Virus record (IMG/VR): IMGVR_UViG_3300036985_007703
Coordinates: 96,001 to 160,000 of that record
Reading direction: 5' to 3' (one strand)
Source: a virus
DNA: 64,000 bases
In this document: one piece after another, positions 4,814 through 47,424 of the stretch
Layout: every line of letters starts with the position of its first letter
Numbering within the stretch: the first letter of the stretch is position 1
Translations under genes and position numbers: made by a program
Notes under the pieces: generated by a model
What the model saw: the letters and a program-made list of their open reading frames with translations, nothing else
The model's database searches: none
Told to the model about the DNA's origin: nothing

Positions 4814-5794
4814 TCAGGCCTGCGCCACCGGCTGCTGTTGGGCGCGCCCCGCCGCCGCCTCGCGGTCGATTGCCGCCCCGCGCTTGGTCAGCTCCGCATC
4901 CGCGGCCTTCGCGCGCTGCTTCGCCGCCGCCTTGGCCTTCAGGCGCTCCTTCGCCGCCGCCGCATCCCGCTTGGTGGGCGCCGCGGCCTTCTTCTTGGCG
5001 CCCTGGCTCGCCAGCGCCTTGGCCGCGTGCTTGCTCGGGCCCGTGCCCCCACCAGCCCGGTGCTTGGCGATCAGCTTGAGGGCCGCCGCCGCCGCCTTCA
5101 CGCGCTTCGCATCGCCCCGCCCCATGCCCTGCTGCATCATGGAGAGGGCCCGCACCAGCTCCTTGTCGCCGCCCTTGCGTGCCGCCTTCAGCGCCTTGCC
5201 CACCTTCGCGGTGGTCTCCTGCGCCTTCGCCGTCTGGTAGGCCGCGTGGACCGTGCGCGCGCTCGCCGCCACGCCCCGCCCCAACGTCTTGAGCCCGCGC
5301 CCCGTGGCCCGCAGGGCCTTGCCGAAGCGCGACTTCATGAGCTGCTTGCCCTTCTTCTTGAGGGCCTTCTTGACCACCTTGAGCTTGTGCTTGCCCCGCC
5401 GCTTGAGGGCCGCCGCCTTGCCGCCCAGCACCGCGATCTTGTGCCGCATCTCGGGCGACATCGCGTCCTTGGCCGCGCCCCAGCCCTTCTTGGCCAGCCG
5501 CGCCGTGCCCTGGGCCGCCGCCTTGCCCACCGCGGCCCCCGCCCGGCCCAGCCCCTTGGCCGCCGCCTGGCCGAGGATGCCCGCCATGCGCGTCCCCACG
5601 CCCTCGTCAAGTTGCTGGCCCGCCGGCGTCAGGGCCTCCACGCGCACGAGCCCCTTGCGCATGCGCATGCGCGCCCCGCGCCCCGGCAGCGCCCCCGCCG
5701 CCACGAGCCCCGGCCGGATCGTCCCCGGCCGCTTGCGGGGCATCCGGCTCCCCAGCGGCACGGGGACCCCCGCCACGTTTGCGCTCGTGATCAC
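4814..5794 (-). CDS. Lys/Ala/Arg-rich histone H1-like protein, putative internal head protein
   Basis: 326 aa, extremely basic (KKALKKKGKQLMK, AKKKAAAPTK); candidate protease sites VRVE/A and QLDE/G. Confidence 0.7.
   Translation of the reverse strand: MITSANVAGVPVPLGSRMPRKRPGTIRPGLVAAGALPGRGARMRMRKGLVRVEALTPAGQQLDEGVGTRMAGILGQAAAKGLGRAGAAVGKAAAQGTARLAKKGWGAAKDAMSPEMRHKIAVLGGKAAALKRRGKHKLKVVKKALKKKGKQLMKSRFGKALRATGRGLKTLGRGVAASARTVHAAYQTAKAQETTAKVGKALKAARKGGDKELVRALSMMQQGMGRGDAKRVKAAAAALKLIAKHRAGGGTGPSKHAAKALASQGAKKKAAAPTKRDAAAAKERLKAKAAAKQRAKAADAELTKRGAAIDREAAAGRAQQQPVAQA
5656..5673. repeat. 18-bp palindromic motif copy 2 (in CDS, encodes RMRMR)
   Basis: TGCGCATGCGCATGCGCG. Confidence 0.9.
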
Positions 5795-6141
5795 GGGACG
5801 CCCTCAGCCCCGATCGGCTGTAGGACCACAATGGCCCCGCGCCGGTCGCGCTCCACGACGGCCCGCCAGCCGGCCTCGCGCTCGAAGCGCCGCGCCACCT
5901 GCCGCGCCACCGCCGCCGCGTCGTGCCCCTCCAGGACCGCCCGCAGGCCGCCCCCCTCCTCGATGAAGCGGCAGGCGCGGCCCTTGGTCGCGCGCTCCGC
6001 CTCCATGCGTAGGAGGCGCCCCACGCGCCGCTCCTCGGGGCCCAACCCCGTCGACAGCACCGGGGCCACGGTCTCGTGGGCCCGCACGGCCCGTGGGGTC
6101 GCCACGATCTCGCGCAGCTTCGATGATAGCCGTCCGCGCAT
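5791..6141 (-). CDS. hypothetical protein with leader-like N-terminus (MRGRLSSKLREIVA)
   Basis: ATG at 6141 with GAGG RBS; stop overlaps the next start (GTGA). Confidence 0.6.
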   Translation of the reverse strand: MRGRLSSKLREIVATPRAVRAHETVAPVLSTGLGPEERRVGRLLRMEAERATKGRACRFIEEGGGLRAVLEGHDAAAVARQVARRFEREAGWRAVVERDRRGAIVVLQPIGAEGVP

Positions 6142-6167
6142 GGTCACCTCGTGCGCCCGCAGGCGCG

Positions 6168-6971
6168 CTACTTCTTCGCCTTCGCCCGCCGCGCCAAGAC
6201 GCCCTTCATCCCCTTCTTGGCCGACTTGCGGAACTTCCCGCTCTTCTTCGTCCAGCCGGGCCGCGCCGGGGACCCGCCCCAGGGCCCGCTCCCATCCTGC
6301 GGGTAGAACACGTGCTTGCCCCCCACGGTGCGCCACACGCCCTTCTTGCCCGGAGGCTTCACGTTCCACACCTTGCCGCCCTTGCCGCTCGGCGTCGTGC
6401 TCCACCCCGGCGTCTTGTACTCCGCGAGGATGCCCGTCAGGGCCTCGCTCAGGCACCGCCCCCCGTAGGTGCGGGCCTCGTGCTTCTTCTTGCCCCGCCC
6501 AATGCCGGGGAGCCCGAGCTGGCCCTTCTGCGGCATCACGCCGCGGGCCGCGCGGAACTTCCCGCCCTTGCCCGCCCAGCCCGGCCGGAACGGCGCGCCG
6601 CCCCAGGGGCCCTCGGGGACGTCCCCGCCCGGCTTGTCCGGGAAGAAGAGGCGCTTGCCGTTGACCGTCACCCACCGCCCGTCGACCGCGCCCTTGGGCC
6701 CCGGCATCGTGGCCTCGCCCCCGGCGCTCTTGCCGCTAGGGGCATCGCGGTCCTGCGCCATCTTCTTGCGCCGCAGCTGGCCCATCGGCGTGCTGTGGTA
6801 GTCGCCGACGGAGGGCGCGAGGGCCCGGTGCGCCGCCGCCCGCTTGCGGAACTCCGCGACCGGCACGCCCGCCGTCGTGCTCTGGTGCGCTGGCGCCTTG
6901 GCCTTGGCCGCCTTGCGCGCCTCGACCACCATCCCCCGCAAGCCCTCGATCAGCTGTCGCACTGTCCGCAT
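6168..6971 (-). CDS. basic leader-bearing protein with duplicated W-x-T-V-x-G-K module
   Basis: MRTVRQLIEGLRGMVVE/A; repeats GRWVTVNGKRLFFPD..GPWGG.P.RPGW and GVWRTVGGKHVFYPQ..GPWGG.P.RPGW; GGAGG RBS. Confidence 0.75.
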   Translation of the reverse strand: MRTVRQLIEGLRGMVVEARKAAKAKAPAHQSTTAGVPVAEFRKRAAAHRALAPSVGDYHSTPMGQLRRKKMAQDRDAPSGKSAGGEATMPGPKGAVDGRWVTVNGKRLFFPDKPGGDVPEGPWGGAPFRPGWAGKGGKFRAARGVMPQKGQLGLPGIGRGKKKHEARTYGGRCLSEALTGILAEYKTPGWSTTPSGKGGKVWNVKPPGKKGVWRTVGGKHVFYPQDGSGPWGGSPARPGWTKKSGKFRKSAKKGMKGVLARRAKAKK

Positions 6972-6983
6972 GGGGTCCTCCGT

Positions 6984-7280
6984 TCAATACTCGCTGTGGA
7001 TCTTATCGAAGTACACGATCTGGGAGTTGTTGCGCCCATCACGGCGCCGTTCTCCGGGTAATCCCATAAAGATCCGCACAAAGGCCCTGCCCGTCTTGGT
7101 CAGCGCCGCCGCCGTTTCAAGCTGCCGCTTTACGACCCCATCCTCGCCCATGACCAAGATCGTGTCGCCAGGCTCGTACTTCTTGTTGAACGCCGCCACA
7201 TCCTCCGCGTCCTCCGCGTTGCCCCGGATTGTGGCCTCCGCCAGCTGCCTAATCAGATCGCGCATCGTCCGCATGGTCAT
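6984..7280 (-). CDS. leader-bearing small protein
   Basis: MTMRTMRDLIRQLAE/A; GAGGAG RBS. Confidence 0.75.
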   Translation of the reverse strand: MTMRTMRDLIRQLAEATIRGNAEDAEDVAAFNKKYEPGDTILVMGEDGVVKRQLETAAALTKTGRAFVRIFMGLPGERRRDGRNNSQIVYFDKIHSEY

Positions 7281-7341: not shown

Positions 7342-8007
7342 TTAGCCGCATCGCCCCATCACAAATTCCAACGGGTATCTCCCATCGGCGTGGTTCGCGA
7401 AGTCCCGGTGCGCGACCACGCCGGGCCCCGGAACCGCCGCCGGCCGCCGGTCCCAGCCGGGGATCTTCCGCAGCTTGGGCCCCAGCCCCGCCGTGGGGAA
7501 CGCCACCGGGATGCCCAGCGCCCCGCAGAGCCACGGCACCAGCGCCTTGAGCACCATGAGCTGCGTCGGCGTCGGCAGCACGTAGGCCTTGACCCCGCCC
7601 GCCGGCACCCACGTCCACCACTCCGCCGGGATCGTTGCCCCAAACGGCTTGCGCGCGTAGGCCGGCGCGTACGGATTGCATACCTCGATCCCGAGGCTCG
7701 TCGGGTTCACCTGGTTCGCGTGGACCATCACGGCCGCCCCGAGGTCCCCGTGGCAGCTCAGGCGCCCATCCGGCCCCAGGATGAGCTGGACGCCGTACCC
7801 CTTGCGGATCAGGGTGTCCTTGCACCCGCTCGCCGTGTTCCCGCAGGTCTCGTGCAGCACGAAGTGCTGGAGGGGCCGCACGCGGGCCTTGGCCTTGAAC
7901 GCGGGCTCCCCGTCGTCCAGGTAGTTCGCCGCGCTGCCCCCCGCCGCGCGCACGGCGTCCGGCAACGGCACGCGCGCCCCGAAGATGATCACCGCGTTCG
8001 ACGGCAT
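7342..8007 (-). CDS. N-acetylmuramoyl-L-alanine amidase (Amidase_2-type endolysin)
   Basis: FVLHET, HANQVNPTSLGIEVCN, PTPTQL and VVAHRDF...DG match the Zn-amidase motifs. Confidence 0.8.
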   Translation of the reverse strand: MPSNAVIIFGARVPLPDAVRAAGGSAANYLDDGEPAFKAKARVRPLQHFVLHETCGNTASGCKDTLIRKGYGVQLILGPDGRLSCHGDLGAAVMVHANQVNPTSLGIEVCNPYAPAYARKPFGATIPAEWWTWVPAGGVKAYVLPTPTQLMVLKALVPWLCGALGIPVAFPTAGLGPKLRKIPGWDRRPAAVPGPGVVAHRDFANHADGRYPLEFVMGRCG

Positions 8008-8673
8008 CTAGCGCCCCCGTCCCATGCGCTGGAACTTCTCCTCGCGGTCCGCCTCGGCCCACCCCTCGGGGTGCCGCTTGAGGTACTGCGTGACGTATAC
8101 CCGCGCCTTCGTCAGCATCTCGTCGATGGTCCTCCCATAGAGAGGGACGACCTGCGCCGCATCGCCAGTGGCGTTGTACGGCGACTCGTCATCATAGATA
8201 GACAGTTCCCACTCCTCTGCCGTGCGCCCCGGCAAGGCCTCAACATGCACCCCCGGCCGCGGCTCCGAGCGGAACCCCTTGCCCGTGCGCTGCGCCTGGA
8301 ACGTCACGACCCCCTCGGTCATGGCCCGCATGCCCCGCCCGGTCGCCTCGCGCACGGCCCGCCCCTTCTGCCCCAGGTACTTCAGGGTCACCTCGATCGC
8401 GGCCTCCTCGGCCTCGTCCTGCGTGAGCCCCTTCGCGAAGGCATGCCCGCCTACGATGCCGTCGGGGCTGTCCTCCGCGTCCACATCATCGAGGATCGTC
8501 GCGTGCCAACGGTCCGTCTGTGCGTAGTGCTCCAGCTCCACGCTGACCGTCTTCGTGGGCTTCGCCACCAGCTTCACGTCCGGGCCAAAGCTCGCGTTGC
8601 CCAGCTTTTCCGGCTTGAAGATGAACCGATAGCGCCCCGTGAGGCGCTCTAGCAACATGCGCATGGTGCCCAT
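8008..8673 (-). CDS. leader-bearing two-part protein
   Basis: MGTMRMLLE/RLTG; internal second leader-like segment GMRAMTE/G. Confidence 0.7.
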   Translation of the reverse strand: MGTMRMLLERLTGRYRFIFKPEKLGNASFGPDVKLVAKPTKTVSVELEHYAQTDRWHATILDDVDAEDSPDGIVGGHAFAKGLTQDEAEEAAIEVTLKYLGQKGRAVREATGRGMRAMTEGVVTFQAQRTGKGFRSEPRPGVHVEALPGRTAEEWELSIYDDESPYNATGDAAQVVPLYGRTIDEMLTKARVYVTQYLKRHPEGWAEADREEKFQRMGRGR

Positions 8674-8675
8674 GG

Positions 8676-9248
8676 TCACGCCCCTTCGATCCGCTGCGCG
8701 GCGACCACCTGCTCCTCGGCCGTCTCCAGATCGCCCGCCCGCAACGCCTTGAGCGCCACGAGGGCCGCCCCCTGCGCCTTGGGGCTCCACTCAGCCATCC
8801 AGTTGTCCCCCGCGGCCACGTGCCCATGGAACTTCCGCATCGCGTTGAGCGCCTTAGCGTCCGCCGCCGTGAGGACCCATGCCTTATCCGCTGGCCCCAT
8901 CCGGCCGCCCCACTTATTCCCCTCTGCCTCAATCATCGCGCGCATGCCAGCATAGTCCTGGCTCTCGCCGAAGGCCCGCGCAAGCCCCTTTGAGGAGTGC
9001 CGCTGGGCCGCGGGGACCTTCACCAAGATCCCCTTGGGGGACCGCATGACCTTGAACTTCGGCTTTTCCGCTGCAGCCTGCCGCTTGATCCGCTTGCGCA
9101 TGCCCTTGCTGGTCTTTACCCACTTGCCAAAGACCATCTTCTCGTCTGCGCCATGCTGCGCCAGCTCCTCGGGCGCGTGCTTCTGCGCCACGTCCCGCAG
9201 GGTCATGGCCTCTTGGAGATCCTCGATCAATCGCCTCATGCTTCGCAT
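8676..9248 (-). CDS. leader-bearing basic two-part protein
   Basis: MRSMRRLIEDLQE/A; internal GMRAMIE/A; AGGAG RBS. Confidence 0.75.
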   Translation of the reverse strand: MRSMRRLIEDLQEAMTLRDVAQKHAPEELAQHGADEKMVFGKWVKTSKGMRKRIKRQAAAEKPKFKVMRSPKGILVKVPAAQRHSSKGLARAFGESQDYAGMRAMIEAEGNKWGGRMGPADKAWVLTAADAKALNAMRKFHGHVAAGDNWMAEWSPKAQGAALVALKALRAGDLETAEEQVVAAQRIEGA

Positions 9249-9261: not shown

Positions 9262-9717
9262 TCACACGGCCTTGAGGCCGCTCGCAAAGGCGCGGTCCCG
9301 CGCCGGTTGTACCCGCTCCGTCCGGTAGGCCCGGTTGAGGCTCTTGCGGATCACGCTCCGGTCCACGCTGCGCCCCACGTCCGCGAGGGCCGCGCGCATC
9401 CGGCCGTCGTCCGCCAGGGCCTCCGCGTCCCGCAGGCGCCAGCGCGCCGTCCACCAGTAGCCCAGGGGGCTGCGCGTCCACCGCAGGAGGACCCACGGGG
9501 TCCCGCCCGCCCAGCGGGGGGCCCGCACCGTGAGGCGCACCTCGCCCCCGCCCAGGCGCCCCCGGATCGGGGCCCGCAGCCGCCCCTGCACCCAGCCCGC
9601 CGTGCGCTCCAGGGGCGCCGTCCACCGCGCAGGCGCATTGGGCCGCACACGCCCCCCGTGCGTCAGCACGGTCAGCACGTGGTCCAGGGCCAGCTGCACG
9701 GCGTCATCGGGGGTCAT
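9262..9717 (-). CDS. hypothetical Arg/Trp-rich protein
   Basis: 151 aa ORF, ATGA-coupled to the upstream gene. Confidence 0.6.
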   Translation of the reverse strand: MTPDDAVQLALDHVLTVLTHGGRVRPNAPARWTAPLERTAGWVQGRLRAPIRGRLGGGEVRLTVRAPRWAGGTPWVLLRWTRSPLGYWWTARWRLRDAEALADDGRMRAALADVGRSVDRSVIRKSLNRAYRTERVQPARDRAFASGLKAV

Positions 9718-10118
9718 CGGCGGCGCTTGTCCCGCATGCTATCCGGTGGCCAGTCCATGCGATCCGCCGGGTCGCTCGGCTGCTTGGGCTCCTCATGGCG
9801 CACGTCCACCGTGAGGCCGTCGCGCCCCGGCAGCGTGATGCGCTTGCCCAGCTTCCCGGCCAGCATCTTCTGGACCTTGGCCGCGGGGACGTCCGCGCGC
9901 TCCAGCGCGGCGCGGAGGTCATCCTCGTCTACCGGCCACTGCTCGATGGCGCCCTCGCTGACATCGTAGATCTCCTCGTCGCTCAGGTCGGCCACCCACC
10001 CCTCGTCCGGGTCCAGCACGAAGGCCGTGACCTTGACCCGCGTGTGGCTCGTGACCGTCTCCATGCGCCCCGCGCGCCCCTCGACCAGCGCCCGCAGGCG
10101 GCTGCTCAGCGTGCCCAT
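9714..10118 (-). CDS. leader-bearing hypothetical protein
   Basis: MGTLSSRLRALVE/G; AGGAGG RBS. Confidence 0.75.
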   Translation of the reverse strand: MGTLSSRLRALVEGRAGRMETVTSHTRVKVTAFVLDPDEGWVADLSDEEIYDVSEGAIEQWPVDEDDLRAALERADVPAAKVQKMLAGKLGKRITLPGRDGLTVDVRHEEPKQPSDPADRMDWPPDSMRDKRRR

Positions 10119-10131: not shown

Positions 10132-10740
10132 CTACATCCCGCGGCGGTCGCCCGCTGCGTTCTTGCCCGCCGTCGTCAGGCTCAGCGCCCCCGCCTTGTT
10201 CTTAGCCAACATCTTCTTGGCCACCAGGGCATCGATCTCGTCCGAGGTCACCTTGTTGTCCGCCAACAGCTCCTTCCGGTACGCCGACGTGAAGCCCATC
10301 ATGGCCAGGATGCGCGCCTCGCGCTCCGTCACGTCCGCGTTGCCCGGCAGCAGGGGCGCCAGCGCGCTCGGGTGCACGTAGATGCTCGCCGAGGTCCCGT
10401 GGTAGCCCGTGGTCCCCACGATCGCCGCCCCGTCCGGCGGCAAGGGATAGCGCTCCTGCACGGTGTCGATCGACCGGCTCGTAAACATGTTGGCCCCGCC
10501 CCAGGAGCCCTCGGAGGCCTTGTAAACCCCGGTCGCCAGGTTGACGACCACAGCAAAGCCCTTCTGGCCGTCCCCCGCGTAGGGGTTCAGGTCGACATCC
10601 GTGCGCGCCGACACGTGGATGTCCCGGCGCCCGTAGCCCACGCTCTTCAGGGCCTTCTGCAGGGGCGCCGGCAGCTCCTTCACCGCCACCGCCGTGCCGC
10701 CGCTAAGCCCCTCTTCCAGTCGCTCCAACAACGCTCTCAT
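10132..10740 (-). CDS. leader-bearing protein with possible C-terminal winged helix
   Basis: MRALLERLEE/G; C-terminus EIDALVAKKMLAKNKAGALSLTTAGK is wHTH-like. Confidence 0.75.
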   Translation of the reverse strand: MRALLERLEEGLSGGTAVAVKELPAPLQKALKSVGYGRRDIHVSARTDVDLNPYAGDGQKGFAVVVNLATGVYKASEGSWGGANMFTSRSIDTVQERYPLPPDGAAIVGTTGYHGTSASIYVHPSALAPLLPGNADVTEREARILAMMGFTSAYRKELLADNKVTSDEIDALVAKKMLAKNKAGALSLTTAGKNAAGDRRGM

Positions 10741-10973
10741 GGCTTCCTCACCACGCGGTCCATCCGGCCGCGCCGCTCCAGCTCCGCCAGCATCTCGTCC
10801 TTCGCCGCCCCCACCCAGACCTGGCCCGTGCTCGGCGACCACAGGATCTCCTCGCCCGCCGCGTAGGCCCCGCCGATCCCCGTGCCCGCGCGGGGCGCCG
10901 GTTTTAGCTCCATGGGCAGGCCCTCGCGGCGGACCCGGAAACCCTCCTCCAAGCGGGTCAGCAGGGCGCGCAT
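10737..10973 (-). CDS. leader-bearing small protein (paralog of 10979-11251)
   Basis: MRALLTRLEE/G; AYAAGEEILWSP. Confidence 0.7.
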   Translation of the reverse strand: MRALLTRLEEGFRVRREGLPMELKPAPRAGTGIGGAYAAGEEILWSPSTGQVWVGAAKDEMLAELERRGRMDRVVRKP

Positions 10974-10978: not shown

Positions 10979-11251
10979 TCAGTAGCCCCCGCCCATGAAG
11001 GCCTCGTCGTCCCGCGCCGCCTGGAACTCGCGCCACGCCTTGTCCTTGTTGGCGCCCGCCAGGATGAGCTTGTCGTTGGGGTAGTAGAGGACCTCCTCGC
11101 CCTTCTTGTAGGCCAGGCCCTTGGCATCGGTCCCCGCGGCCTTCGCCTTCATCAGGTAGGGGTCACGCCCGCGCCCGCCGCTGCGCCCCCCCCACTCCAC
11201 GATCGTCCGCAGGTCCGCCGCCAAGGCCCGTAGGTTCCGTGCCATCGTCAT
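10979..11251 (-). CDS. leader-bearing small protein (paralog of 10737-10973)
   Basis: MTMARNLRALAADLRTIVE/W; AYKKGEEVLYYP; AAGGAG RBS. Confidence 0.7.
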   Translation of the reverse strand: MTMARNLRALAADLRTIVEWGGRSGGRGRDPYLMKAKAAGTDAKGLAYKKGEEVLYYPNDKLILAGANKDKAWREFQAARDDEAFMGGGY

Positions 11252-11258: not shown

Positions 11259-11276
11259 TGCGCATGCGCATACGCA
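11259..11276. repeat. 18-bp palindromic motif copy 3 (intergenic)
   Basis: TGCGCATGCGCATACGCA. Confidence 0.9.
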
Positions 11277-17292: not shown

Positions 17293-17310
17293 TGCGCATG
17301 CGCATGCGCG
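17293..17310. repeat. 18-bp palindromic motif copy 4 (intergenic)
   Basis: TGCGCATGCGCATGCGCG. Confidence 0.9.
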
Positions 17311-18462: not shown

Positions 18463-19155
18463 CTAGGCGCCCTGGGCCTGCCCCTGGGGCTTGCGCTTGG
18501 TGGGCACCTGGGCCTGCGCCTTCAGCGCCCGCCGCGTCTCGTGCCCCTTCTTTGCCGCCGCGCTGCGCTTGGCCGCCACCTGCTGCACCGCCAAGGCCTT
18601 GGCCGCCTTCTTCTGCGTGCGCTGCGCGCTGATCAGCTTCGCCGCCATCGTGACGCGGCCCTCGCGCTGCTTCTCGGCCGGCTTCAACCGCTCCATCCCC
18701 ATACGCCGCGAGGCGCCCTTGAGGTGCTGGCGGATGCCCTCCATCATGCTCTGGCGCTTGGTGCGCTTGGGCCGGAAGCCGTAGTGGCGCTTCACCTGGT
18801 TCTTCCAGAAGCGCATGGCCTGCTCGTAGTTCGGCTTGCCCTTGGCCACGATCCGCCCCTCGGTCGCCATGCGCGCCACCGCGCTCCACCAGAAGGCCGC
18901 GGAGTCTGGGAACGGGATCTGCGCGGGGTCGATCAGGTACCACGGCGGCTGCAGGTAGCGCCCGTACTTGGCCTTGGCCTGCTCCATCGTCAGCTTCTCG
19001 GGCCGCGGGTTGCGCGTCGGCATGCGGGGCTGGATCGCGCGCTCCTCCAGCAGGGCCGCAAGGCGCCCCGCCAGCCCCTCGTTGCGTACGCGCATACGCA
19101 GGGGAGAGCCCGTGATCGCCCGCAGGGCCCCCGCGAGTTGCCCCGCCGTCCTCAC
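18463..19155 (-). CDS. basic leader-bearing protein
   Basis: GTG start; RTAGQLAGALRAITG...LAGRLAALLEE/R; Lys/Arg-rich C-terminus. Confidence 0.65.
   Translation of the reverse strand: MRTAGQLAGALRAITGSPLRMRVRNEGLAGRLAALLEERAIQPRMPTRNPRPEKLTMEQAKAKYGRYLQPPWYLIDPAQIPFPDSAAFWWSAVARMATEGRIVAKGKPNYEQAMRFWKNQVKRHYGFRPKRTKRQSMMEGIRQHLKGASRRMGMERLKPAEKQREGRVTMAAKLISAQRTQKKAAKALAVQQVAAKRSAAAKKGHETRRALKAQAQVPTKRKPQGQAQGA
19083..19100. repeat. 18-bp palindromic motif copy 5 (in CDS, encodes RMRVR)
   Basis: TGCGTACGCGCATACGCA. Confidence 0.85.
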
Positions 19156-29093: not shown

Positions 29094-29111
29094 TGCGCAT
29101 GCGCATGCGCA
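29094..29111. repeat. 18-bp palindromic motif copy 6 (perfect, intergenic)
   Basis: TGCGCATGCGCATGCGCA. Confidence 0.9.
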
Positions 29112-31040: not shown

Positions 31041-32633
31041 TCAGAAGGTCGAGGAGACGCTCGGGAGCCCGCTGACGGTCACGACGCCGTAGTACTCCGG
31101 GCGGAGCAGCTTGGTGGCGAAGCGCGACGCGAAGCCCTTCTTGAAGGTGAAGGTGTGCGGGTCCTGCCAGGTCGGGGTGACCTGCAGCGGGATGTACGGG
31201 GCGAACACGTAGCCCGCGTCGAGGAAGTTCGAGCCGCGGAGCCCGACGAGCACCTTGTTGTCGTCCAGGAACGGATCCTGGTAGACGGTGAACTTCCGCA
31301 TCATGGTGCCGACCATCTGGATGCCGTAGTCGCTCGTGAGCGGGCCGTAGCTCGGGGGCACGACCTGGCTGGCGCCCATGTCGAAGTCCTTGTGGCTCGT
31401 GAGCTGGCTGAGCAGCGACACGACGGCCGGGCTGGCGACGATGAAGTTCGCCGGGGCGCGCAGCGTGGTCTTGTGGATCTTCGCGGCCACCGCGTCGATC
31501 TGGGTCAGCAGCTCGCGGATGCTCTCGATCTCGCCCGGCACCGTCGGGCTGTAGCTGTAGGTCGCCTGGTGCGCAGCGCCGGCCACGAGGTCCGTGATGA
31601 CCTTGCGGTCGATTTCGAGGGCGATCTCGTTGGAGAGGCCGGCGACCAGCTCGGCCTCCATGTTGAGGCCGTGGAGGGCGCGGAGGTCGTCCATGGCCTC
31701 CTGCGACCACGAGGCGCGCAGCTTGTAGGGCTCGGCCGTCACGGTCGACATGGCCATGTCCATGCTGATGCCCGGCACCGCGGCGCCGGAGGTCGTGTTC
31801 ACGAGTTCCCAGTTCACATAGTACTGGGCGTACACGACGTGGTTCGCGCTGAAGTTGCAGGGAGCGCCCGCAGCGGTCTGGGGCGTCAGGGTCCAGGCGC
31901 CCGTGGAGGCGGTGAAGGTGCCCACGGCGTGACCGTGGTTGTCCGTGAGGGTCGTGGTGGCGCCCGTCGGATCGAGCGTGGCGACCTTGTTCTCGGAGCC
32001 CGCCTCGACCGTGCGGTAGTAGAGCTTCACCGAGAAGGTGCGCTGGCCGCTGGTGCCCGGCGTGCGGATCGGCTTCCAGGCCGGGATGCGGCAGTTGCCG
32101 GCGCCCTGGTTCAGGGTGCCGGTGGCCGCGCCGGTGTCCGTGCAGAGCACGTCGTAGTCGACGTACTCGGAGGCGTAGTTCTTCGCGAAGTTGCGGATGA
32201 GGGCGTCGCCCGCGCTCAGTTCGCCGTCGTAGCCCTGGCTGTAGGGGTAGTCCGTGATGCCGTTGGCCGGGATCTTGACGCCCTTGCGGCCCTCGTACTT
32301 GTAATCCCAGGTGAAGACCGCGCCGACCGGGGCCGACAGCGGCTGGACCGACGTGATCTGGTTGGCGATCAGGTTGGGGAACACGCGGCGGAGCACCGGG
32401 AAGATGTACTTGGTGAACGAGCCGACGTTCGTGCTCAGCGCATCCTCGCTGAGGTTCTTCATGTACGTGGCCTGGTTCTCCAGGAGGATGGCGGCGACGC
32501 CCTTGGTGTAGGCGTGGCGCACGCCGTCGGTGCCCTCCAGCAGTTGGCCCCACTTGCGGCTGAGCTGGGAGACGTAGGACTTGTCGGCGACGGTCTTCGC
32601 GCCGCTCTCGGTCAGGATGTTGCGAGCTTCCAT
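31041..32633 (-). CDS. major capsid protein (T4 gp23-like)
   Basis: AILLENQ, FPVLRRVFPNLIANQITSVQPL, KLRASWSQEAMDDL, EIALEIDR, AGYVFAPYIPL. Confidence 0.97.
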   Translation of the reverse strand: MEARNILTESGAKTVADKSYVSQLSRKWGQLLEGTDGVRHAYTKGVAAILLENQATYMKNLSEDALSTNVGSFTKYIFPVLRRVFPNLIANQITSVQPLSAPVGAVFTWDYKYEGRKGVKIPANGITDYPYSQGYDGELSAGDALIRNFAKNYASEYVDYDVLCTDTGAATGTLNQGAGNCRIPAWKPIRTPGTSGQRTFSVKLYYRTVEAGSENKVATLDPTGATTTLTDNHGHAVGTFTASTGAWTLTPQTAAGAPCNFSANHVVYAQYYVNWELVNTTSGAAVPGISMDMAMSTVTAEPYKLRASWSQEAMDDLRALHGLNMEAELVAGLSNEIALEIDRKVITDLVAGAAHQATYSYSPTVPGEIESIRELLTQIDAVAAKIHKTTLRAPANFIVASPAVVSLLSQLTSHKDFDMGASQVVPPSYGPLTSDYGIQMVGTMMRKFTVYQDPFLDDNKVLVGLRGSNFLDAGYVFAPYIPLQVTPTWQDPHTFTFKKGFASRFATKLLRPEYYGVVTVSGLPSVSSTF

Positions 32634-32694: not shown

Positions 32695-34299
32695 TCATGA
32701 CAGACCGGAGAGCTGCCGCATCATTGCGGGGTCCAGGCCGAACTCGGCCAAGTCGCCCGCGCCCGCCGTGCCTGCCCCGCGTGGGGCCACGGCCTCCTCC
32801 TCCAGCGTCGACGGCCGCGCCTGGGCCCGCGTCAGCTGCGCGCGCATGCGCTCCAGCTGCCCGTCGCCCATCGTCGTCCGCCCCCGCTGCCGCACCAGCC
32901 GATCGACCTCATCTGTGTTCGCAACGCCCTCTAGCAACCCAATCAACTCGCGCCCGTTCGTCAACCCTGCGACGCTCTCGGCCTTGTACGCCGCGAGGTC
33001 CGCCGCGGCCCGCGCCTCGGCTAGATCCCGCTGTAGCGTGGCGACGCGCTGCTCGGATCCCCGTGCGCGCGCCTCCAGGCCCTCGCCGCCTTCAACAGCC
33101 AGCTTCAACTGCATCTGCTTCTCGGCCAGTCTCTCGTGCAATTCCTGCGACTCCGCGAGGAGCCGCTTGCGCTCGCCCTCCCACCGCCGCGTGGCCTCGG
33201 CCAGCGGGTTGGGGGCAGGGGGGAGCTTCTCTAGCTGCCGCAGCACGCCGCGCACGCGCGTGCGCACCTCGGCCTCGTCCTCCAATAGCCCGGCGTCGGC
33301 CAGCAGCTCGCGCGCCATCGCCGCGTGGGGGTGCCCCGCCACGAGGCGCTCCGCGAGGAGCTGGTAGCCCGCCTCGCGGGCCACCCCGCGATAGGCCTCC
33401 GCCTGCTCGCGCAGGCCCGTGATCTCCGTGCGCTGCGCCTGCAGGGCCGCCGCCACGTGGTCCTCAGGGACCGCCGGCAGGTAGGGCCGCAGGAGCTGCG
33501 CCACCGTGGCCAGCACCGCGCCCGCGCCGTCCGCCTCGGCCTCCTCGCGCAGCTCCGCGCGCACCTCGGCCCGCAGCCCCTGCAGGGCCTCGACGAGCCC
33601 GCGCTCGAAGCGCTCGCGCTCCTCCTCGCGGGCCGCCGCCACGGCCGCCTCGACGTCCGTGCTCGCCGCCGCCTGGAGTTGCGCCTGCGCCCGCGCCATC
33701 GCCTTGTCCATCAGGCCCTCCTCCAGGGCCGCGAGGGCCTCGGGGATCTGCGCCTGCAGGGCGTCGGTCGCGTAGGGCGTGTTCACATCCTCGTTGAAGA
33801 TCTCGGGGTACGCCGACTTCATCGCGGGGTCCGCCACGAAGTCCCAGGTCTTGAGGTTGTAGTCCTCGCACACGTCCTCGCCGTCCCCGCTCTCGCTCGG
33901 CTTCGTGCTCCCGAAGCCCCGCGAGCTGACGCCGATCTCCACCCCGTGGCGGATCAGCGCCGCGAGCGTGCGGCCGTTCGGCGTGTCGAGGATCTCGGCG
34001 GCCCCCAGCACGCGCCCATCGTCGGCGATGGACGCCTCGGTGATCAGCGCCGCCGCGCGCGTCAGCTTGGTCTTCCCGTCGTCCGGGTGGTCCAGCTCGG
34101 CCAGCACGCGCCGCCGCTTGATGTCCTCCTGGAGCTTCTTGACCTCGCGCTCATAGATCGCGCGGGGATAGCGCCGGCCGTTCTGCGTCGGGGTGTCGTA
34201 GCGCCCAAACTCGCCGCGGGCCACGAGCTTGCCCGTGCCCTTGTCCTCGGTCAGGGTGAACGTCGTGGTGATCGTCTCAGTCAGCAGCTTGCCGCTCAT
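32695..34299 (-). CDS. prohead protease (T4 gp21-like) fused to a coiled-coil scaffold
   Basis: NGRRYP, ELDHP, ILDTPNG, GVSSRGFGS, WDFVADPA; about 350 aa helical C-terminus. Confidence 0.92.
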   Translation of the reverse strand: MSGKLLTETITTTFTLTEDKGTGKLVARGEFGRYDTPTQNGRRYPRAIYEREVKKLQEDIKRRRVLAELDHPDDGKTKLTRAAALITEASIADDGRVLGAAEILDTPNGRTLAALIRHGVEIGVSSRGFGSTKPSESGDGEDVCEDYNLKTWDFVADPAMKSAYPEIFNEDVNTPYATDALQAQIPEALAALEEGLMDKAMARAQAQLQAAASTDVEAAVAAAREEERERFERGLVEALQGLRAEVRAELREEAEADGAGAVLATVAQLLRPYLPAVPEDHVAAALQAQRTEITGLREQAEAYRGVAREAGYQLLAERLVAGHPHAAMARELLADAGLLEDEAEVRTRVRGVLRQLEKLPPAPNPLAEATRRWEGERKRLLAESQELHERLAEKQMQLKLAVEGGEGLEARARGSEQRVATLQRDLAEARAAADLAAYKAESVAGLTNGRELIGLLEGVANTDEVDRLVRQRGRTTMGDGQLERMRAQLTRAQARPSTLEEEAVAPRGAGTAGAGDLAEFGLDPAMMRQLSGLS

Positions 34300-34498: not shown

Positions 34499-35566
34499 TC
34501 AGTTTCCCGACTCGTCCTCGTCGTCCTCGTCGTCCTCGTCGATGTCCTCGCCGAGGTAATCGAAGTCGATCTCGCCGTCCTCGATCGACTCCATGATGCG
34601 CGTCACGAGGTTGAAGCACGGGGCCAGCGTGGCCACGAACTCGTCCTCGTTCAGGGCGTCCTCGACCAGGGTGCCCGCGTTGGCGCGATCGATCACGGGG
34701 ATCAGGGCCTCTTCGAGCACGGCGTCAACCTCGGGGGAGCCGTACATCTCGCTCATGAGGGCGAAGATGTTGTTCAGGCGCTCGACGATCTCCGCCCGGC
34801 TGCCGGCCTGCACGCGGCTCTCGTGGAGCACGCTGCGGAGGTCGTTCGCGATCTCGCTGTCGGCCGAGGCCCCGAGGCTGCTGAAGCCACGGACGGGCCC
34901 GCGATTGCCGGCGCCGAGGAGCTTGCGGATCGGCTTGGCCGCGATCCGGGCCGCGAGCTTGTTGCCCTTCGCGCCCATCTTGGCCGCGCGGACCTTCTGC
35001 ACCTTCTTGTACCAGGCCTTGGCCTGCATCTTCTTGGTCGAGCGCTTGATCTGGCTCTTGTGCGTGCGGCGGTACTGCTTCGCTAGGAGGCGGGCCTTGC
35101 GCCCCTTGGTGTCCGTGCGGCGGTGCTTCGTGACCATCTTGCCGCTCTTCGCCCCGAAGGTGCGGAAGGCCGAGCCCTCTTCGAGCCGGCCCTTGGCCCG
35201 CAGGAGCATCTCCACGACCTCCTGCGCACGCGCGGTCAGCGCGGCGTCGCCCTCGGGGAGGTCCTTCTTGCCCAGCTCCTCGAGGAGGGCGTCGATGTCC
35301 CCGGCGTCCATGCTCTCGAAGGGGAGGGCCGCGATCCGGTTGAACAGCTCGCGCGTCACCACGGGGCCGTCGATCGGGTCATGGTCCTCGGTCTGCGTTG
35401 TGCCGCTCACCGCGATGGTGTCGAGGCGCTTGACGCCGCCGCCCACCACGCTGTCCTCGGTGAGGACGTTCATCCCCGCGAGGGTGCGCTGGTCCTCGAC
35501 CATCGTCGAGAGCCCCAGGGCCGCCATATCCTGCTCGAACGTGCTGTCAATGATCCGCTGTGCCAT
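34499..35566 (-). CDS. prohead core protein (acidic-basic-acidic)
   Basis: Lies between portal and protease; central Lys/Arg block flanked by VLTE/D, RLEE/G and VLHE/S. Confidence 0.7.
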   Translation of the reverse strand: MAQRIIDSTFEQDMAALGLSTMVEDQRTLAGMNVLTEDSVVGGGVKRLDTIAVSGTTQTEDHDPIDGPVVTRELFNRIAALPFESMDAGDIDALLEELGKKDLPEGDAALTARAQEVVEMLLRAKGRLEEGSAFRTFGAKSGKMVTKHRRTDTKGRKARLLAKQYRRTHKSQIKRSTKKMQAKAWYKKVQKVRAAKMGAKGNKLAARIAAKPIRKLLGAGNRGPVRGFSSLGASADSEIANDLRSVLHESRVQAGSRAEIVERLNNIFALMSEMYGSPEVDAVLEEALIPVIDRANAGTLVEDALNEDEFVATLAPCFNLVTRIMESIEDGEIDFDYLGEDIDEDDEDDEDESGN

Positions 35567-36434
35567 CGTCGCCGTCTCCTTGTTCGTTGGGGTCGCGGCC
35601 CCGCAGTGCGAGGTAGCCCGCGACGATCACCATGTGCCTGGCCCGCTCCGCGCACGTCCCATGCGCCCTTGCCATCCGCGCGACATCCCGTGGGACGTCC
35701 TCCAGCATCAACCGTTCGGCACGTGTGAGCGCGGCCACCATGGCCTCCGCCTCGCCGATCAACGAACTCCTGATGGCGTCCAGGTCCGCTTCGCCCTTAT
35801 CAAATCGCACGGATCGGCCCTCGTCAAGGATTTGGGCGTACGCCGCCTTGAGCCCCTCGACGGCCATCCGCAATTCGCCCACTGGGATCCCCGTGTCGGG
35901 GCGCCCCGCGAAGGTCGCGGGATCGGGGACGCGCGCCTCGCGCGCCCGCACCTCGCCCCACATGCGCCGGCGGATGCGCTCCGCGTCCGCCAGGTACCAG
36001 CGCTGCCACGCCGCGTCCTGCGCGGCCTCGATCTCCGCCACCGCGTCCACGAGCCAATAGCGCTCGCCCGCCTCGATCAGGTGGGCGAGGTTGCGCATGC
36101 GCATGCGCGAGGCCTCCCCCGCGCACCGCCCCTCCGCGACGTCCCGCACGAGGGCCCGCACCTGCCCCGCCACGTAGCGCGGGACCTCGGCCTCGCCGAT
36201 CGCCGCCACCGCGTAGGGCCCGTGCCCCTGCAGGGCCACCGCGCCGCCCACGCAGTCGTAGTCCACGCGCTCGAAGCGCTCCTCGTCGTCGACCACCACC
36301 GCGCGGTCCACCCACGTCGCGACGGCCCGCACGGGGCGCTGGAGCGCCGCGCTCGCCGCCCGCTCGATCTGGTCGATCAGCGCCTCGTAGCTCCCCGCCC
36401 GCATCTCCGCGAGCTGCGCCTCGGTGATGTACAT
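35547..36434 (-). CDS. hypothetical head assembly protein
   Basis: 295 aa, directly after the portal. Confidence 0.6.
   Translation of the reverse strand: MYITEAQLAEMRAGSYEALIDQIERAASAALQRPVRAVATWVDRAVVVDDEERFERVDYDCVGGAVALQGHGPYAVAAIGEAEVPRYVAGQVRALVRDVAEGRCAGEASRMRMRNLAHLIEAGERYWLVDAVAEIEAAQDAAWQRWYLADAERIRRRMWGEVRAREARVPDPATFAGRPDTGIPVGELRMAVEGLKAAYAQILDEGRSVRFDKGEADLDAIRSSLIGEAEAMVAALTRAERLMLEDVPRDVARMARAHGTCAERARHMVIVAGYLALRGRDPNEQGDGDDGTADH
36092..36109. repeat. 18-bp palindromic motif copy 7 (in CDS, encodes RMRMR)
   Basis: TGCGCATGCGCATGCGCG. Confidence 0.9.
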
Positions 36435-36437: not shown

Positions 36438-38294
36438 TTAATCCCTCCGCCCATGGCCCGCCGCCCGCCGATCCCGGCGCGCTTGCCGAGCCTGTGCCTC
36501 TAGCGTCCGATCGATCCCTTCGACCCGCGCCGCCATGCGCTCCGTGAGCCGCGTGACGCGCCCGTGCTCGCTCAGCAAGCGGTCCAGCCGCGCCTTCACC
36601 GCCGCGTCGCCCTCCAGGGCGCGCCCGCGGGGCTCCTCCGCCTCGGGGACCGCCCCCTCGGCCGCCCCCATCTCCGGTGGGAGCCCGCCCTCGGCGCCCA
36701 TCGGCCCCATCACGGTCTCCGGGTACTCCCGGATGATCTCCGCCTGCGTCGCCGCGTCGCCCTTCATGGCCCCGCGCTTGTCCTTGCGCGCCTCGTCCGT
36801 CACGTAGATGGCCTCGTCCTGCGAGAAGCCGAACACGTGCTGGAGGATCCAGGGCTGCGGCACCAACTCGCCGAGGCCCTGCGCGAGCTGCGCCTGCTGC
36901 AGCCGCACCTCCAGCTGTGCCAGCTCGAAGATGTAGCTCGGCACCGTCATGTGGAGATCGAAGGCCACCGCGTCGGGGTCGATCCCCAGCGCCGCGAGGT
37001 GGACCCGGCAGATCTGCTTCACACCGTTGCGCACCTCGCGCTGCACCCGCATGGCCGCCCGCGCGAACCGCACGTCGTCCCCGCTCGCGATGCGCCCCGT
37101 GGTCTCCTCCATCCCGAGGAGGCGCTTGGGGGTCTGCGCCGCGGCGAGCACCTTGTTGCGGAAATACTCCAGAATGTCGAGGTCCTGCGAGTCCACGCCC
37201 TGCAGCACGTCGACGCGCGTCGAGTCCTTGCCCCCGCGCGTCGGCAGCCAGAGGTCCTCCAGCTGCCCCTGCACGTTGTAGCGGAAGTCCAGCTGCCCCG
37301 TGCTCGGGTTGAAGACCTTCTTGCGCGTGTACTGCTGCTGGATCTTCTTGACGTGCGCCCAACCCTCGGTTGGGGGCATGTCCCCGGTATCAATATAGAA
37401 TGCGTTGCGCGAGGGCCCGCGCGTCAGCTTGGTGACCAGCGCGGTGTCCTCCATCATCATGAGCCGCTTCCAGGCCCAGCGCCCGCCGTCCAGCACGCTC
37501 ACGCCGTAGACCGCCGTGGTGTCCTTCTGCCGCAACCGCCAGTGGACGATCTCCCAGGGCTCGAACACCACGCACCCGTTGACGGGCTTGCGCTGGTCGC
37601 GCGCCACCTTCAACGCCGCGTCGAACTCGCGCTGCGTGAGCTTGAACTGCCCCGTGGGGTCCTGGATGAAGCCGAGGGTCGTCCCGTGGTTGTCCTGCAC
37701 GCGCCGCATCGTGGGGGGCGCCAGGAAGTTGATCCCGACGACGCCCATCTTGCCCACGAGGACCTCGCCGAAGCGGTTGCCGTACTTGCCCAGCGTGCGG
37801 GCGAGCCCGTGGACGTCGTCCTCCAGGCGCAGGCGCCGCGTGAGGAGGTCCTCCAGCACGTCGCGCACCAGCTTGTCCTTCGAGGAGGCCCAGATGCTGC
37901 GCCCCGTGTTGCTGTCCGGGATCGAGGCGTCGTCCGCGTAGAGCGTGAAGATCGACGAGGTGAGGTCGTAGTCGTCCATGTCCTCGGCGTCGCGGTACCG
38001 CTGCATGAGGTCGTCGGAGAGCTGGAGGGCCTGCGCGACGGGGCTGTTCGCGTCGAAGTTGCCGCCGGTCTGCAGGGCCAGGGCCCCCACGTAGCCGTCC
38101 TTGGCAAGGAGCGGGTTGTCCTGGTGCTTGCCCGCGATCTCGGCGCCCTGGGTCACGCCGCGGGGCGCCGTGGGGCCCTCGTGGGCCGGTCCGCTCCCGC
38201 GCCCCAGCCATCCCCGGATCTTGTCCCAGAGGCCCCCGCCCTTGTCCCCGGCTCCGGTCGGCTGCTGCTGTTGCTGCTGCTTGGGATCCGCCAT
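36438..38294 (-). CDS. portal protein (T4 gp20-like)
   Basis: WKRLMMMEDTALVTKLTRGPSRNAFYIDTGDMP, EDLWLPTRGG, DILEYFRNK. Confidence 0.95.
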   Translation of the reverse strand: MADPKQQQQQQPTGAGDKGGGLWDKIRGWLGRGSGPAHEGPTAPRGVTQGAEIAGKHQDNPLLAKDGYVGALALQTGGNFDANSPVAQALQLSDDLMQRYRDAEDMDDYDLTSSIFTLYADDASIPDSNTGRSIWASSKDKLVRDVLEDLLTRRLRLEDDVHGLARTLGKYGNRFGEVLVGKMGVVGINFLAPPTMRRVQDNHGTTLGFIQDPTGQFKLTQREFDAALKVARDQRKPVNGCVVFEPWEIVHWRLRQKDTTAVYGVSVLDGGRWAWKRLMMMEDTALVTKLTRGPSRNAFYIDTGDMPPTEGWAHVKKIQQQYTRKKVFNPSTGQLDFRYNVQGQLEDLWLPTRGGKDSTRVDVLQGVDSQDLDILEYFRNKVLAAAQTPKRLLGMEETTGRIASGDDVRFARAAMRVQREVRNGVKQICRVHLAALGIDPDAVAFDLHMTVPSYIFELAQLEVRLQQAQLAQGLGELVPQPWILQHVFGFSQDEAIYVTDEARKDKRGAMKGDAATQAEIIREYPETVMGPMGAEGGLPPEMGAAEGAVPEAEEPRGRALEGDAAVKARLDRLLSEHGRVTRLTERMAARVEGIDRTLEAQARQARRDRRAAGHGRRD

Positions 38295-42080: not shown

Positions 42081-42098
42081 TGCGCATGCGCATGCGCA
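42081..42098. repeat. 18-bp palindromic motif copy 8 (perfect, intergenic upstream of TerS)
   Basis: TGCGCATGCGCATGCGCA. Confidence 0.9.
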
Positions 42099-45583: not shown

Positions 45584-45958
45584 CTAGCGCTTGAAGACCT
45601 CGTCGATGCGCATGGTGAGGCGGTGGACGGGCGTCATGTCGTTCATGGGGCCGTACATCTGCTGGAAGTGCACGTACCAGGCCTTGGCGTTCTCGAACCC
45701 CTCCAGGATGGCCTTGCGGTCGTCCTGGCGGCGCTCCCCGAGGCCGGACTTGTCCACGGTGGTGATGGTGGCGCGGGCGATGGGGTGGTCGGGCCCGAAG
45801 GTGACGCCCGGCACGGGGCTCGCGTGGGGGCTCGCCAGCATGACGACGGTCCCCGGCGTGTGGGGGCAACCGTTGTCTTTGTCGTAAAGGCGTGAGAGCG
45901 CGGTGGCTTCGCCGGCGAGGATCTTGCCGGTCTCAAAGCGGTCGAGGGTCACGGGCAT
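45584..45958 (-). CDS. ASCH/PUA-like domain protein
   Basis: KILAGEATALSR, IARATITTV, AILEGFENAKAWYVHFQQMYG. Confidence 0.6.
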   Translation of the reverse strand: MPVTLDRFETGKILAGEATALSRLYDKDNGCPHTPGTVVMLASPHASPVPGVTFGPDHPIARATITTVDKSGLGERRQDDRKAILEGFENAKAWYVHFQQMYGPMNDMTPVHRLTMRIDEVFKR

Positions 45959-46062
45959 TGGGGGCTCCTGCGGGGGGAGGGGATCTGGGGGCGGCGCGGT
46001 CCTGGGCTCCCCCCGTGGGGCCGCGGGCCCGCCCGCCGCGCGCCATGCGCGGGGGCACGGGG

Positions 46063-46092
46063 ACCATAGCGCGCCCGCGGGGGATTTGTCAA
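46063..46092 (-). promoter_or_regulatory. sigma70-type promoter TTGACA-N18-TATGGT
   Basis: Perfect -35, upstream of the ASCH-Cas4-RuvC unit. Confidence 0.7.
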
Positions 46093-46379
46093 CCGTTTGC
46101 GAGGGCGCGGCGGAGGGCGGCGACGGTGGCGTCCCAGGCGGCGCCGTGGAGGTCCAGGGGGACGGCCACGGCATCCGCGGGGGTCAGGGGGTGGACGCGG
46201 ACCCCGCCGGGGGCCTCCGCCACGAGGGCGGCGCGGCCGTCGAGAGTGACGAGGGCGGTGGCGTGGCCGTCCATGGGGCCGCTCCACTGGACGGTGGCCC
46301 CGGCGGCCTTGAGGACGCTGGCGAGGGTGGGGGCGTGCAGGGCGCGCTCCGTGAGGGCCTGGATCGAGGGGATCGTCAT
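46089..46379 (-). CDS. hypothetical protein (MTIPSIQALTE/R)
   Basis: GGAGG RBS; ATGA-coupled. Confidence 0.55.
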   Translation of the reverse strand: MTIPSIQALTERALHAPTLASVLKAAGATVQWSGPMDGHATALVTLDGRAALVAEAPGGVRVHPLTPADAVAVPLDLHGAAWDATVAALRRALANG

Positions 46380-47023
46380 GGGGGAGCCTCCGTCTTGATG
46401 GTCTGTGCAACCTCTGCGAGCCACGCACCGAGGGCCGCGCCGACCGCCGACGGGGCCAGGGGCCAGCGGTCCACACCCGGCAGGGCCGCGGGCGCCGGCT
46501 GGGGCAGGGCCGCCCCGTCGATGCTCACCTTGAGCTTGGGCGCGCCGCTCCCCGTGCGGGGCAGCGCGAGGGCTGCGTCGACGCGGATGCGGGCGGCCCC
46601 CGCGTACCACGCGGCCATCACGCTGAGGCGCCGGGTCAGGTCGTCCTTGCCCAGCTCGACCTCGCCGACCACGCGCACAGCGCCGCGCGGCCCGACGGCG
46701 GCCTCCAGGACCCGCCCGGCGACGGCCGCCGCGACCTCCATCTGCCCGTCGTCCCACTCGCGGGCCATCCCCGCCTGCAGGGCCGCCTCGGCCGCCTGCG
46801 CCTCGGGGTGCTGATGGCGCCACGCCGCGTTGCCCTGGCGGTCCGCCTGCTCGCCCCCGAGATCCGCTACGCGATCGAGGTAGCTGGTGTAATAGAAGTC
46901 CCCGCGCACGGGGTCGGTGGGCGCCTTGGCCGCCGCCGCCACGAGGGCGCGGGCCACGGCGCGCTCCACGCTCCGCCGCATGCGGTAGGCCTCCTCCAGA
47001 CGCTGCAAGAGCGTGCGCATCAT
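46376..47023 (-). CDS. leader-bearing protein
   Basis: MMRTLLQRLEE/A. Confidence 0.75.
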   Translation of the reverse strand: MMRTLLQRLEEAYRMRRSVERAVARALVAAAAKAPTDPVRGDFYYTSYLDRVADLGGEQADRQGNAAWRHQHPEAQAAEAALQAGMAREWDDGQMEVAAAVAGRVLEAAVGPRGAVRVVGEVELGKDDLTRRLSVMAAWYAGAARIRVDAALALPRTGSGAPKLKVSIDGAALPQPAPAALPGVDRWPLAPSAVGAALGAWLAEVAQTIKTEAPP

Positions 47024-47424
47024 GCGGCCTCAAAGCCTTTCTGCGCGGCCTGCGCGAGGGCCTGCTGCACCGCCGCCCGCACCGCGTCGGCCGCCGCCTG
47101 GGGCGCCACCGGCCACCCATCCCCCACCGGCACGCGCGCCATCAGCGGCGCGGGACGCACCCCGTAGCGGCCCACCCACGCCTCGGCCACCCATGGCCCG
47201 TCCGGGGCCATGCGCACCTGCACCACGAGGGTCGAGCGCTCCCCGCGCGAGCGCGCCAGGCGCGTCCCCACCTCGCCGCCCGCCCGCGCCTTGATCTCCA
47301 CGCGCACCTTGCACAGCGCGGGCTCGTCGACCACCACCTCCACCGCCCCCACCGGGACAGCGCGCTGCAGCGCCGCCTCGATCCCCATCGCCTCCTCTAG
47401 CCGTCGCAGCAAGGTGCGCATCAT
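47020..47424 (-). CDS. leader-bearing protein (partial paralog of 46376-47023)
   Basis: MMRTLLRRLEE/A; shared C-terminal WP[LV]AP.A; GGAGG RBS. Confidence 0.75.
   Translation of the reverse strand: MMRTLLRRLEEAMGIEAALQRAVPVGAVEVVVDEPALCKVRVEIKARAGGEVGTRLARSRGERSTLVVQVRMAPDGPWVAEAWVGRYGVRPAPLMARVPVGDGWPVAPQAAADAVRAAVQQALAQAAQKGFEAA

Follow-up and report, generated by a model that had tools for sequence, protein, structure and literature searches.

A short N-terminal leader on unrelated late proteins of an uncultured myovirus, a candidate capsid-targeting propeptide of the T4 kind

In phage T4, the internal proteins and Alt are targeted to the core by N-terminal propeptides of 10-19 residues, which are removed by the gp21 protease (PMC8442874, PMC5694885, PMC9026906). 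The T4 tag is a 10-mer with glutamate at positions 6 and 10 and isoleucine at position 8 (PMC8442874, PMC5694885, PMC9026906); for targeting, residues 4 and 7 are important, and for processing residues 8 and 10, and gp21 itself carries an L-I-E that ends at residue 9 (PMC9026906). The internal proteins of T4 are highly basic (PMC8442874), and those found in T-even phages are diverse with only the tag in common (PMC3012670) and are encoded at loci that vary fast between close relatives (PMC3012670, PMC9026906). In this study, which was based on sequence comparison and structure prediction, we analysed a window of 64,000 nucleotides (bases 96001-160000) of the IMG/VR virus record IMGVR_UViG_3300036985_007703, an uncultured myovirus that is represented by a single contig of 168,532 bp with a guanine-cytosine (GC) content of 69.6%. 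A short N-terminal leader recurs in this genome on proteins that are otherwise unrelated. Based on its sequence features and on the analogy with T4, we favour, with some reserve, the reading that this leader is a T4-like capsid-targeting propeptide, that it is removed by the head protease and that it marks a large and fast-turning-over set of head-packaged proteins. Coordinates are those of the window unless the genome is named, and all of the approximately 221 genes of the genome, hence every gene of this phage described below, lie on the minus strand.

The phage resembles T4 in several respects. It has a T4-type portal, protease and capsid protein; its leader has approximately ten residues and in many cases a basic residue at position 2, a hydrophobic one at each of positions 4 and 8 and a glutamate at each of 6 and 10, after which a small residue follows; and, as in T4, the tag is found on unrelated, often basic proteins at loci that vary between close relatives. 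However, the scale is about ten times larger, with approximately 29 genes compared with the three internal proteins and a few others of T4. Moreover, unlike in T4, there are two large arrays in the tail module, internal copies of the tag and, in the clade, a capsid N-terminus that is similar to the tag, while the bodies show no homology to IPI, IPII, IPIII or Alt, as no Pfam or PHROG family was found for any of them.

The principle is known from T4, and phage P1 and the phiKZ-like phages are looser parallels. In the phiKZ-like giants (phiKZ, 201phi2-1 and SPN3US), many head-internal proteins are cut after glutamate by a prohead protease that is related to that of T4, and the extreme N-terminus can be conserved between paralogues (PMC5694885). 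Their propeptides, however, are mostly longer than 100 residues and have a small residue at P3 (S/A/G or A), whereas the leaders described here have 8-17 residues with L, I, M or V at P3; nor is there a single short consensus tag over dozens of unrelated proteins in those phages. With DarB of phage P1, an N-terminal signal of at most 30 residues is sufficient to direct the protein or a reporter to the capsid, from which it is delivered to the host (PMC9024508). Unlike the proteins studied here, the Dar proteins lack a shared N-terminal consensus, and the head of P1 does without a separate scaffold system.

The leader and its distribution

The comparisons show that the leader is a real feature, selected at the peptide level, modular and conserved across the clade, and that it fits the cutting rule of gp21-type proteases. 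Its core is M-[RKSQ]-x-[LM]-[IL]-E, typically M-R-x-L-(I/L)-E, which is often extended by x-[LM]-x-E. The leader ends in (L/I/M/V)-x-E, and the next residue is usually G or A. A second form, variant B, reads L-S-x-R-L-R-A-L-(V/I)-E-G and has the core R-A-L-(I/V)-E-G in common with the main form. The conserved methionine is often not the initiator, since one to eight residues may come before it, and thus it appears to be part of the hydrophobic face of an amphipathic helix; the leader as a whole appears to form such a helix with its hydrophobic face at positions 1, 4, 5 and 8. Most of the first ATGs of the leader genes are preceded by a GGAGG-like ribosome-binding site, and the alternative starts that were noted are minor (GTG at 8679 versus 8673, 11251 versus 11245 and 47424 versus 47421).

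The strict leader pattern, M-[RKSQ]-x-[LMV]-[ILM]-[ERQTG], was matched at 20 N-termini, while 0.37 were expected from the internal frequency of the pattern, and the motif is therefore enriched at the N-termini of this GC-rich genome, a test that the preliminary description of the window had called for. When scored with a leave-one-out position matrix, 20 of the 28 leaders reached at least 12 bits compared with 0.25 expected by chance. A six-frame profile search of the genome gave matches on the coding strand only, almost all of them in three clusters, and four of the five best internal matches to the leader matrix were inside cluster genes. Among pairs of leaders with an identical residue, the codon was identical in 50%, which is approximately what the codon usage of the genome predicts; the leader is therefore conserved at the peptide level, which agrees with what had been proposed.

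Approximately 29 leader genes, which make up 13% of all genes and 9% of the total DNA, were found in the genome, arranged in three clusters. Eleven are in the window and 16-18 are outside it, in a cluster at 41.8-54.7 kb of the genome, and the earlier count of about 12 leader proteins was thus an underestimate. The twelve N-termini that had been quoted in the preliminary description were all found at the starts given there, on the minus strand and with a GC content at third codon positions of 0.80-0.97. Ten of them are clear members, while two are weak. The first, the 116-residue product of 5791..6141, is a doubtful member with a weak, variant-B-like N-terminus (7.4 bits). The second, 18463..19155, has a leader-like stretch of 6.4 bits that is internal or near an alternative start; it matched no family and is probably not a leader gene. 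The view that the sequences diverge after the leader was borne out by BLASTP, in which the bodies were mutually unrelated except for one pair, 10737..10973 and 10979..11251.

Seven IMG/VR genomes or fragments of relatives were compared with this genome. Homologues of its capsid protein at 47-76% identity form a large uncultured clade; the best identity to a capsid protein of a cultured phage was approximately 30%, and a search of the phage collection for near-identical DNA gave no match. A test in related genomes had also been suggested, and five of them (G006-G010, capsid 53-57% identical, GC 51-68%) all bear the leader. The same leader in genomes of such different composition shows that it is not a GC artefact. 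G010 has approximately 20 leader genes and G006 approximately 14, and there are several in each of G007, G008 and G009; only three to four bodies of G010 and none of G006 are shared with this genome. The content of leader genes also differs between close relatives, whose capsid proteins are 95-96% identical: some genes are absent and others are swapped for a leader gene with an unrelated body, and the leader genes that are shared are 42-92% identical compared with 93-99% for the neighbouring structural genes. At the position of 10737..10973, genome G002 has a leader gene with an unrelated 94-residue body, and 6984..7280 has no orthologue there. The orthologues of 8676..9248 and of the next leader gene form one 363-residue frame in G002 with the second leader mid-frame, which fits a cleavable linker, but could also be an internal start or an assembly error.

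The 202-residue protein encoded at 10132..10740 has the leader M-R-A-L-L-E-R-L-E-E followed by G (22 bits), and its body is a conserved domain. Its homologues in the clade bear the leader, whereas more distant homologues open directly at the first strand of the body. Three distant homologues (L132:10001-10639, L133:10001-10732 and L134:10001-10585) lie among small early-type genes on phage contigs of 212-273 kb, and their neighbours include helicases, helix-turn-helix proteins and an AcrVA2-like gene. The homologues in L132 and L134 are leaderless, and that in L133 (P0149) has a different N-terminal extension. It seems that this domain is expressed early in some phages and is leader-tagged in late operons here. 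Because distant homologues of the cargo are leaderless and the same leader stands on different bodies, the leader is a portable, lineage-specific add-on module that is independent of the body. As a separate observation, four distant homologues of this cargo (P0149, P0156, P0160 and P0187) have a longer N-terminal extension that starts with M-R-L-x-R-L-L-A-S-L-D, which may be the address peptide of another lineage.

Head proteins, the proposed route of the leader and its rivals

The head module is of the T4 type. It comprises a gp20-like portal protein (36438..38294; Pfam Portal_T4, E = 3e-49), a gp21-family prohead protease of 534 residues (32695..34299; Pfam Peptidase_S77, E = 2e-16; PHROG 207) and a gp23-family major capsid protein (31041..32633; Pfam match), and the families PF03420 (E = 2e-16), PF07230 and PF07068 were all matched. 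That the window encodes a gp21-like protease, as had been stated, was confirmed by the alignment with the crystal structure of T4 gp21 (5JBL, E = 7e-7) and by His71 and Ser125/126, the catalytic histidine and serine, which are invariant among relatives. The S77 domain is N-terminal, and the protein continues in a long C-terminal region that is helical and scaffold-like. A single S77 gene is present in the genome, and its product is presumed to be the enzyme that removes the leaders. Two unassigned head-core candidates, of 295 residues (35547..36434) and 355 residues (34499..35566), are encoded between it and the portal; the latter has acidic ends and a basic middle, and its place between the portal and protease genes is kept in relatives. 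Sites of the form [LIVM]-x-E occur 4.3 times per 100 residues in the protease-scaffold protein (23 sites) and 4.8 and 3.4 times in the 355- and 295-residue proteins, compared with 1.6 genome-wide, which is as expected for core proteins that are degraded by the protease. A complex prediction for the protease-scaffold protein, the 355-residue core candidate and a 78-residue leader protein scored 0.06, which is below the mark and carries no weight for or against binding.

A link between the leader and the head is visible in the capsid proteins of the clade. In 13 of the 19 that were aligned, the extreme N-terminus is (E)-A-R-x-L-L-E-Q, which reproduces R2, L4, L5 and E6 of the leader, and A-R-x-L-L-E-Q scores 10.8 bits on the leader matrix, within the top 0.014% of internal 8-mers. 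Covariation of the leader consensus with the capsid N-terminus across genomes was not apparent by simple comparison. The proteases of relatives start with M-P-x-L-L-I-E. Of the five [LIVM]-x-E sites in the capsid protein of this phage, four fall within residues 1-63, and the mature part is nearly free of the motif. Glu63 is invariant and near the position at which T4 gp23 is cut, and it is the likely maturation site. The propeptide of T4 gp23 has 65 residues, with the cut after residue 65 (PMC5694885). Moreover, relative L013 has a leader gene inside its head gene block, two genes past the capsid gene, and a leader-like gene occupies the same place in L012.

If the leader acts as the T4 tag does, its helix would bind the scaffolding core of the assembling prohead, and any protein that bears it would thereby be enclosed in the head. 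The gp21-family S77 protease would then cut after glutamate, at E6 or E10. The mature body would remain with the packaged DNA and enter the host alongside it at infection, where an early-acting role, such as anti-defence or DNA binding, can be imagined. We infer core binding, enclosure and cleavage from T4 together with the statistics of the motif, and consider ejection and function to be more speculative. The reading as a capsid-targeting propeptide is partly supported, in that the features that could be tested in silico are all consistent with it. By analogy, the system appears to work like the T4 tag, although the leader is not a sequence-level member of the T4 tag family.

Several observations weigh against capsid targeting. 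The T4 10-mer scores only 2.0 bits on the leader matrix, and the likeness is therefore one of layout and not of sequence. The preliminary description had noted the hydrophobic-x-E motif of the leader in the capsid protein and protease of this phage; this triplet is indeed present in both, but it is all that their N-termini share with the leader. The capsid N-terminus has drifted and keeps only I-L-T-E, and the fuller likeness is found only in the capsid proteins of relatives. Some leaders have no glutamate at position 6, and several bodies are strongly acidic, one of them with a net charge of -39. The ratio of observed to expected [LI]-x-E sites was 0.95 in the bodies compared with 1.36 in other proteins; as the motif is only mildly rarer in the bodies, this depletion was not used as evidence. 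Furthermore, the two large leader clusters, A and B, sit in the tail/baseplate module and not in the head module, which head loading leaves unexplained.

The position of clusters A and B supports a different reading, in which the leader directs its protein to a part of the virion other than the head or to a dedicated adaptor, for example for tail or baseplate loading as in contractile injection systems, and the head protease leaves it in place. A possible adaptor would be the product of a conserved leaderless gene of approximately 123 residues that travels with the clusters in four genomes. We consider this reading unlikely: the leader core recurs at the capsid N-terminus of relatives, whose proteases bear a related L-I-E, the leader ends in the gp21 cutting motif, and cluster C and the leader gene of L013 lie beside head and packaging genes. 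The lumen of a myovirus tube is normally filled by the tape measure protein, which also counts against a tail address. The cargo signals known from injection systems are longer and have no sequence consensus. Compared with such cargo, the location in the tail module fits, but the signal differs, being a short, helical consensus and not a long, disordered and consensus-free one.

Improbable as well is an action of the leader in the cytoplasm, be it as a degradation tag, a site for a chaperone or regulator, a helix for oligomerisation or a site that a modifying enzyme recognises. Short N-terminal tags that consist of methionine, a basic and a hydrophobic residue can indeed be protease recognition signals in bacteria, which counts for such an action. 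However, the leader genes are in late structural operons, and the leader matches the specificity of the one such protease that the phage encodes. The leaderless homologues, in turn, have early genes as neighbours, as would fit a change from early expression to the delivery of ready-made protein. As regards a modifying enzyme, a search of the genome for a radical-SAM enzyme (PF04055) gave no match, while the positive controls matched. Finally, that the pattern is an artefact of chance in a genome whose high GC favours Arg, Ala, Leu and Glu codons, of a nucleotide element at gene starts or of recent duplication within one gene family has next to no probability and was excluded by the leave-one-out scores (20 of 28 leaders at 12 bits or more against 0.25 expected), the codon sharing at background level, the same peptide in relatives with 51-59% GC and the unrelated bodies.

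Leader genes, cargo bodies and neighbouring features

All of the leader genes are on one strand and within late structural operons. Cluster A is around a CIS_tube-like gene and adjoins baseplate genes, cluster B is between the tube genes and the genes for baseplate-hub and tape-measure-like proteins, and cluster C is upstream of the packaging genes. The tail is contractile, with a sheath gene at 13478-16027 and two tube-like genes. In addition to the 202-residue cargo, the window encodes leader proteins of 78 residues (10737..10973, the same 10-residue type of leader followed by G), 90 residues (10979..11251, a longer variant that ends in I-V-E and is followed by W) and 134 residues (9714..10118, a variant B leader, L-S-x-R-L-R-A-L-V-E followed by G, 13.4 bits). 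Internal copies of the leader occur in the 190-residue product of 8676..9248, in which the second copy is at residue 101, and, in a weaker form, at residue 116 of the 223-residue product of 8008..8679 (21 bits), whose orthologue in G010 shares the start of its body. The 98-residue product of 6984..7280 has the leader end L-A-E followed by A (18.4 bits), while the 267-residue product of 6168..6971 has a very basic body, with a net charge of about +36, that is homologous to a leader protein of G010. In cluster C, 46376..47023 encodes 215 residues (18.9 bits) and 47020..47424 encodes 133-134 residues (19.8 bits).

Leaderless genes are also found within the clusters. Two in cluster B encode 221 residues (7342..8007, conserved in G010) and 151 residues (9262..9717), and neither has a PHROG family. 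A leaderless protein of 121-123 residues occurs inside the leader clusters of four genomes (genome 44706-45077 in this phage; L096:5846-6211 on the minus strand; L095:7641-8006); it gave no family match and may be an adaptor or structural partner of the cargo.

When 30 leader proteins of this genome and ten of relatives were scanned against Pfam and PHROG, no significant family was found, with sub-threshold hints only of Peptidase_Mx and of a ProQ-C-like domain. An isoelectric point above 8 was found for 17 of 27 bodies compared with 49 of 194 other proteins (p = 2e-4). The structural model of the 202-residue cargo was of high confidence (predicted local distance difference test score of 88.6), with the leader as a detached, low-confidence helix of residues 2-13; in this predicted model, the C-terminus resembles a winged helix (chain 6qh0_D, probability 0.99). 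A 452-residue cargo encoded outside the window (genome 45708-47066) has an invariant H-E-L-G-H and E-E-F-A-E signature and is conserved together with its leader across the clade, and its model matched the catalytic domains of zinc metallopeptidases weakly. Based on the signature and the model, we regard it as a predicted zinc metallopeptidase and a candidate for a head-delivered protease. In the Foldseek comparison of two cargo models with the PDB, nothing was found at E <= 0.001, and the weak matches were only to winged-helix and zincin folds. In a third case, a 562-residue cargo (genome 49606-51294), the first approximately 170 residues are a widespread unannotated domain that elsewhere is N-terminal, in the middle or C-terminal, in proteins of up to 2118 residues. 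Close to their N-terminus, those family members that start with this domain have hydrophobic-x-E-[RAG]-Q-K in common, possibly as a conserved site of maturation.

Further features of the genome were recorded apart from the leader. The terminase-like frame of 984 residues at 38314-41268 holds an intein with an HNH homing endonuclease, and among relatives the portal gene of L012 has an intein, while the protease gene of G010 is interrupted by an insertion that follows D-H-P-C. A gene for a Cas4 or PD-(D/E)xK-type exonuclease (44559-45569; PHROG 2506 and 1706) separates cluster C from the packaging genes. A 68-residue protein with a ribbon-helix-helix-like N-terminus is encoded inside the tail module (4549-4755) and is conserved in G002. 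No tRNA genes were found in the window. Outside the window, the frames at the two ends of the contig (genome 2-199 and 167959-168390) open with 30 identical residues, which points to a repeat at the termini or to an assembly overlap of circular or permuted DNA. An 18-bp palindrome, (TGCGCA)x3, and variants of it with one mismatch recur at 3501-3518, 5656-5673, 11259-11276, 17293-17310, 29094-29111, 36092-36109, 42081-42098 and 50037-50054, with 17 overlapping 12-mer matches compared with 0.6 expected. Several copies lie in the gap from a stop codon to the ribosome-binding site that follows, and a copy is also found directly upstream of the first gene of cluster B; the palindrome may be a late-operon regulatory or terminator-like element.

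Meaning for the clade

A broader picture, which we put forward only tentatively, is that of a large clade that uses one portable address peptide to pre-load the head of each phage with 15-30 rapidly exchanged effectors that are delivered together with the DNA. Among these could be a zinc metallopeptidase, DNA-binding proteins of the winged-helix and highly basic kinds and polyproteins that are cut at internal tags, and functions that are expressed early elsewhere would be supplied ready-made. Such a set would be the largest known arsenal of virion-delivered proteins under a single sequence code. What is new compared with T4 is the sequence of the tag, its conservation across the clade and its likeness to the capsid N-terminus in most members, as well as the scale of approximately 29 genes, the internal copies of the tag and its addition to domains that are leaderless elsewhere. 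As a second targeting tag that is distinct in sequence, it would be a useful means to load capsids with foreign proteins, an application for which the tag of T4 has already served. The leaderless and leader-bearing versions of one domain are a natural experiment in which early expression can be compared with pre-made delivery. If the proposed reading is true, the three internal proteins of T4 would be the small end of a larger strategy, in which one peptide code packs and injects any protein. The tagged genes would then be a catalogue of candidate early effectors, among them anti-defence and DNA-binding proteins and a protease, in lineages that have no cultured members.

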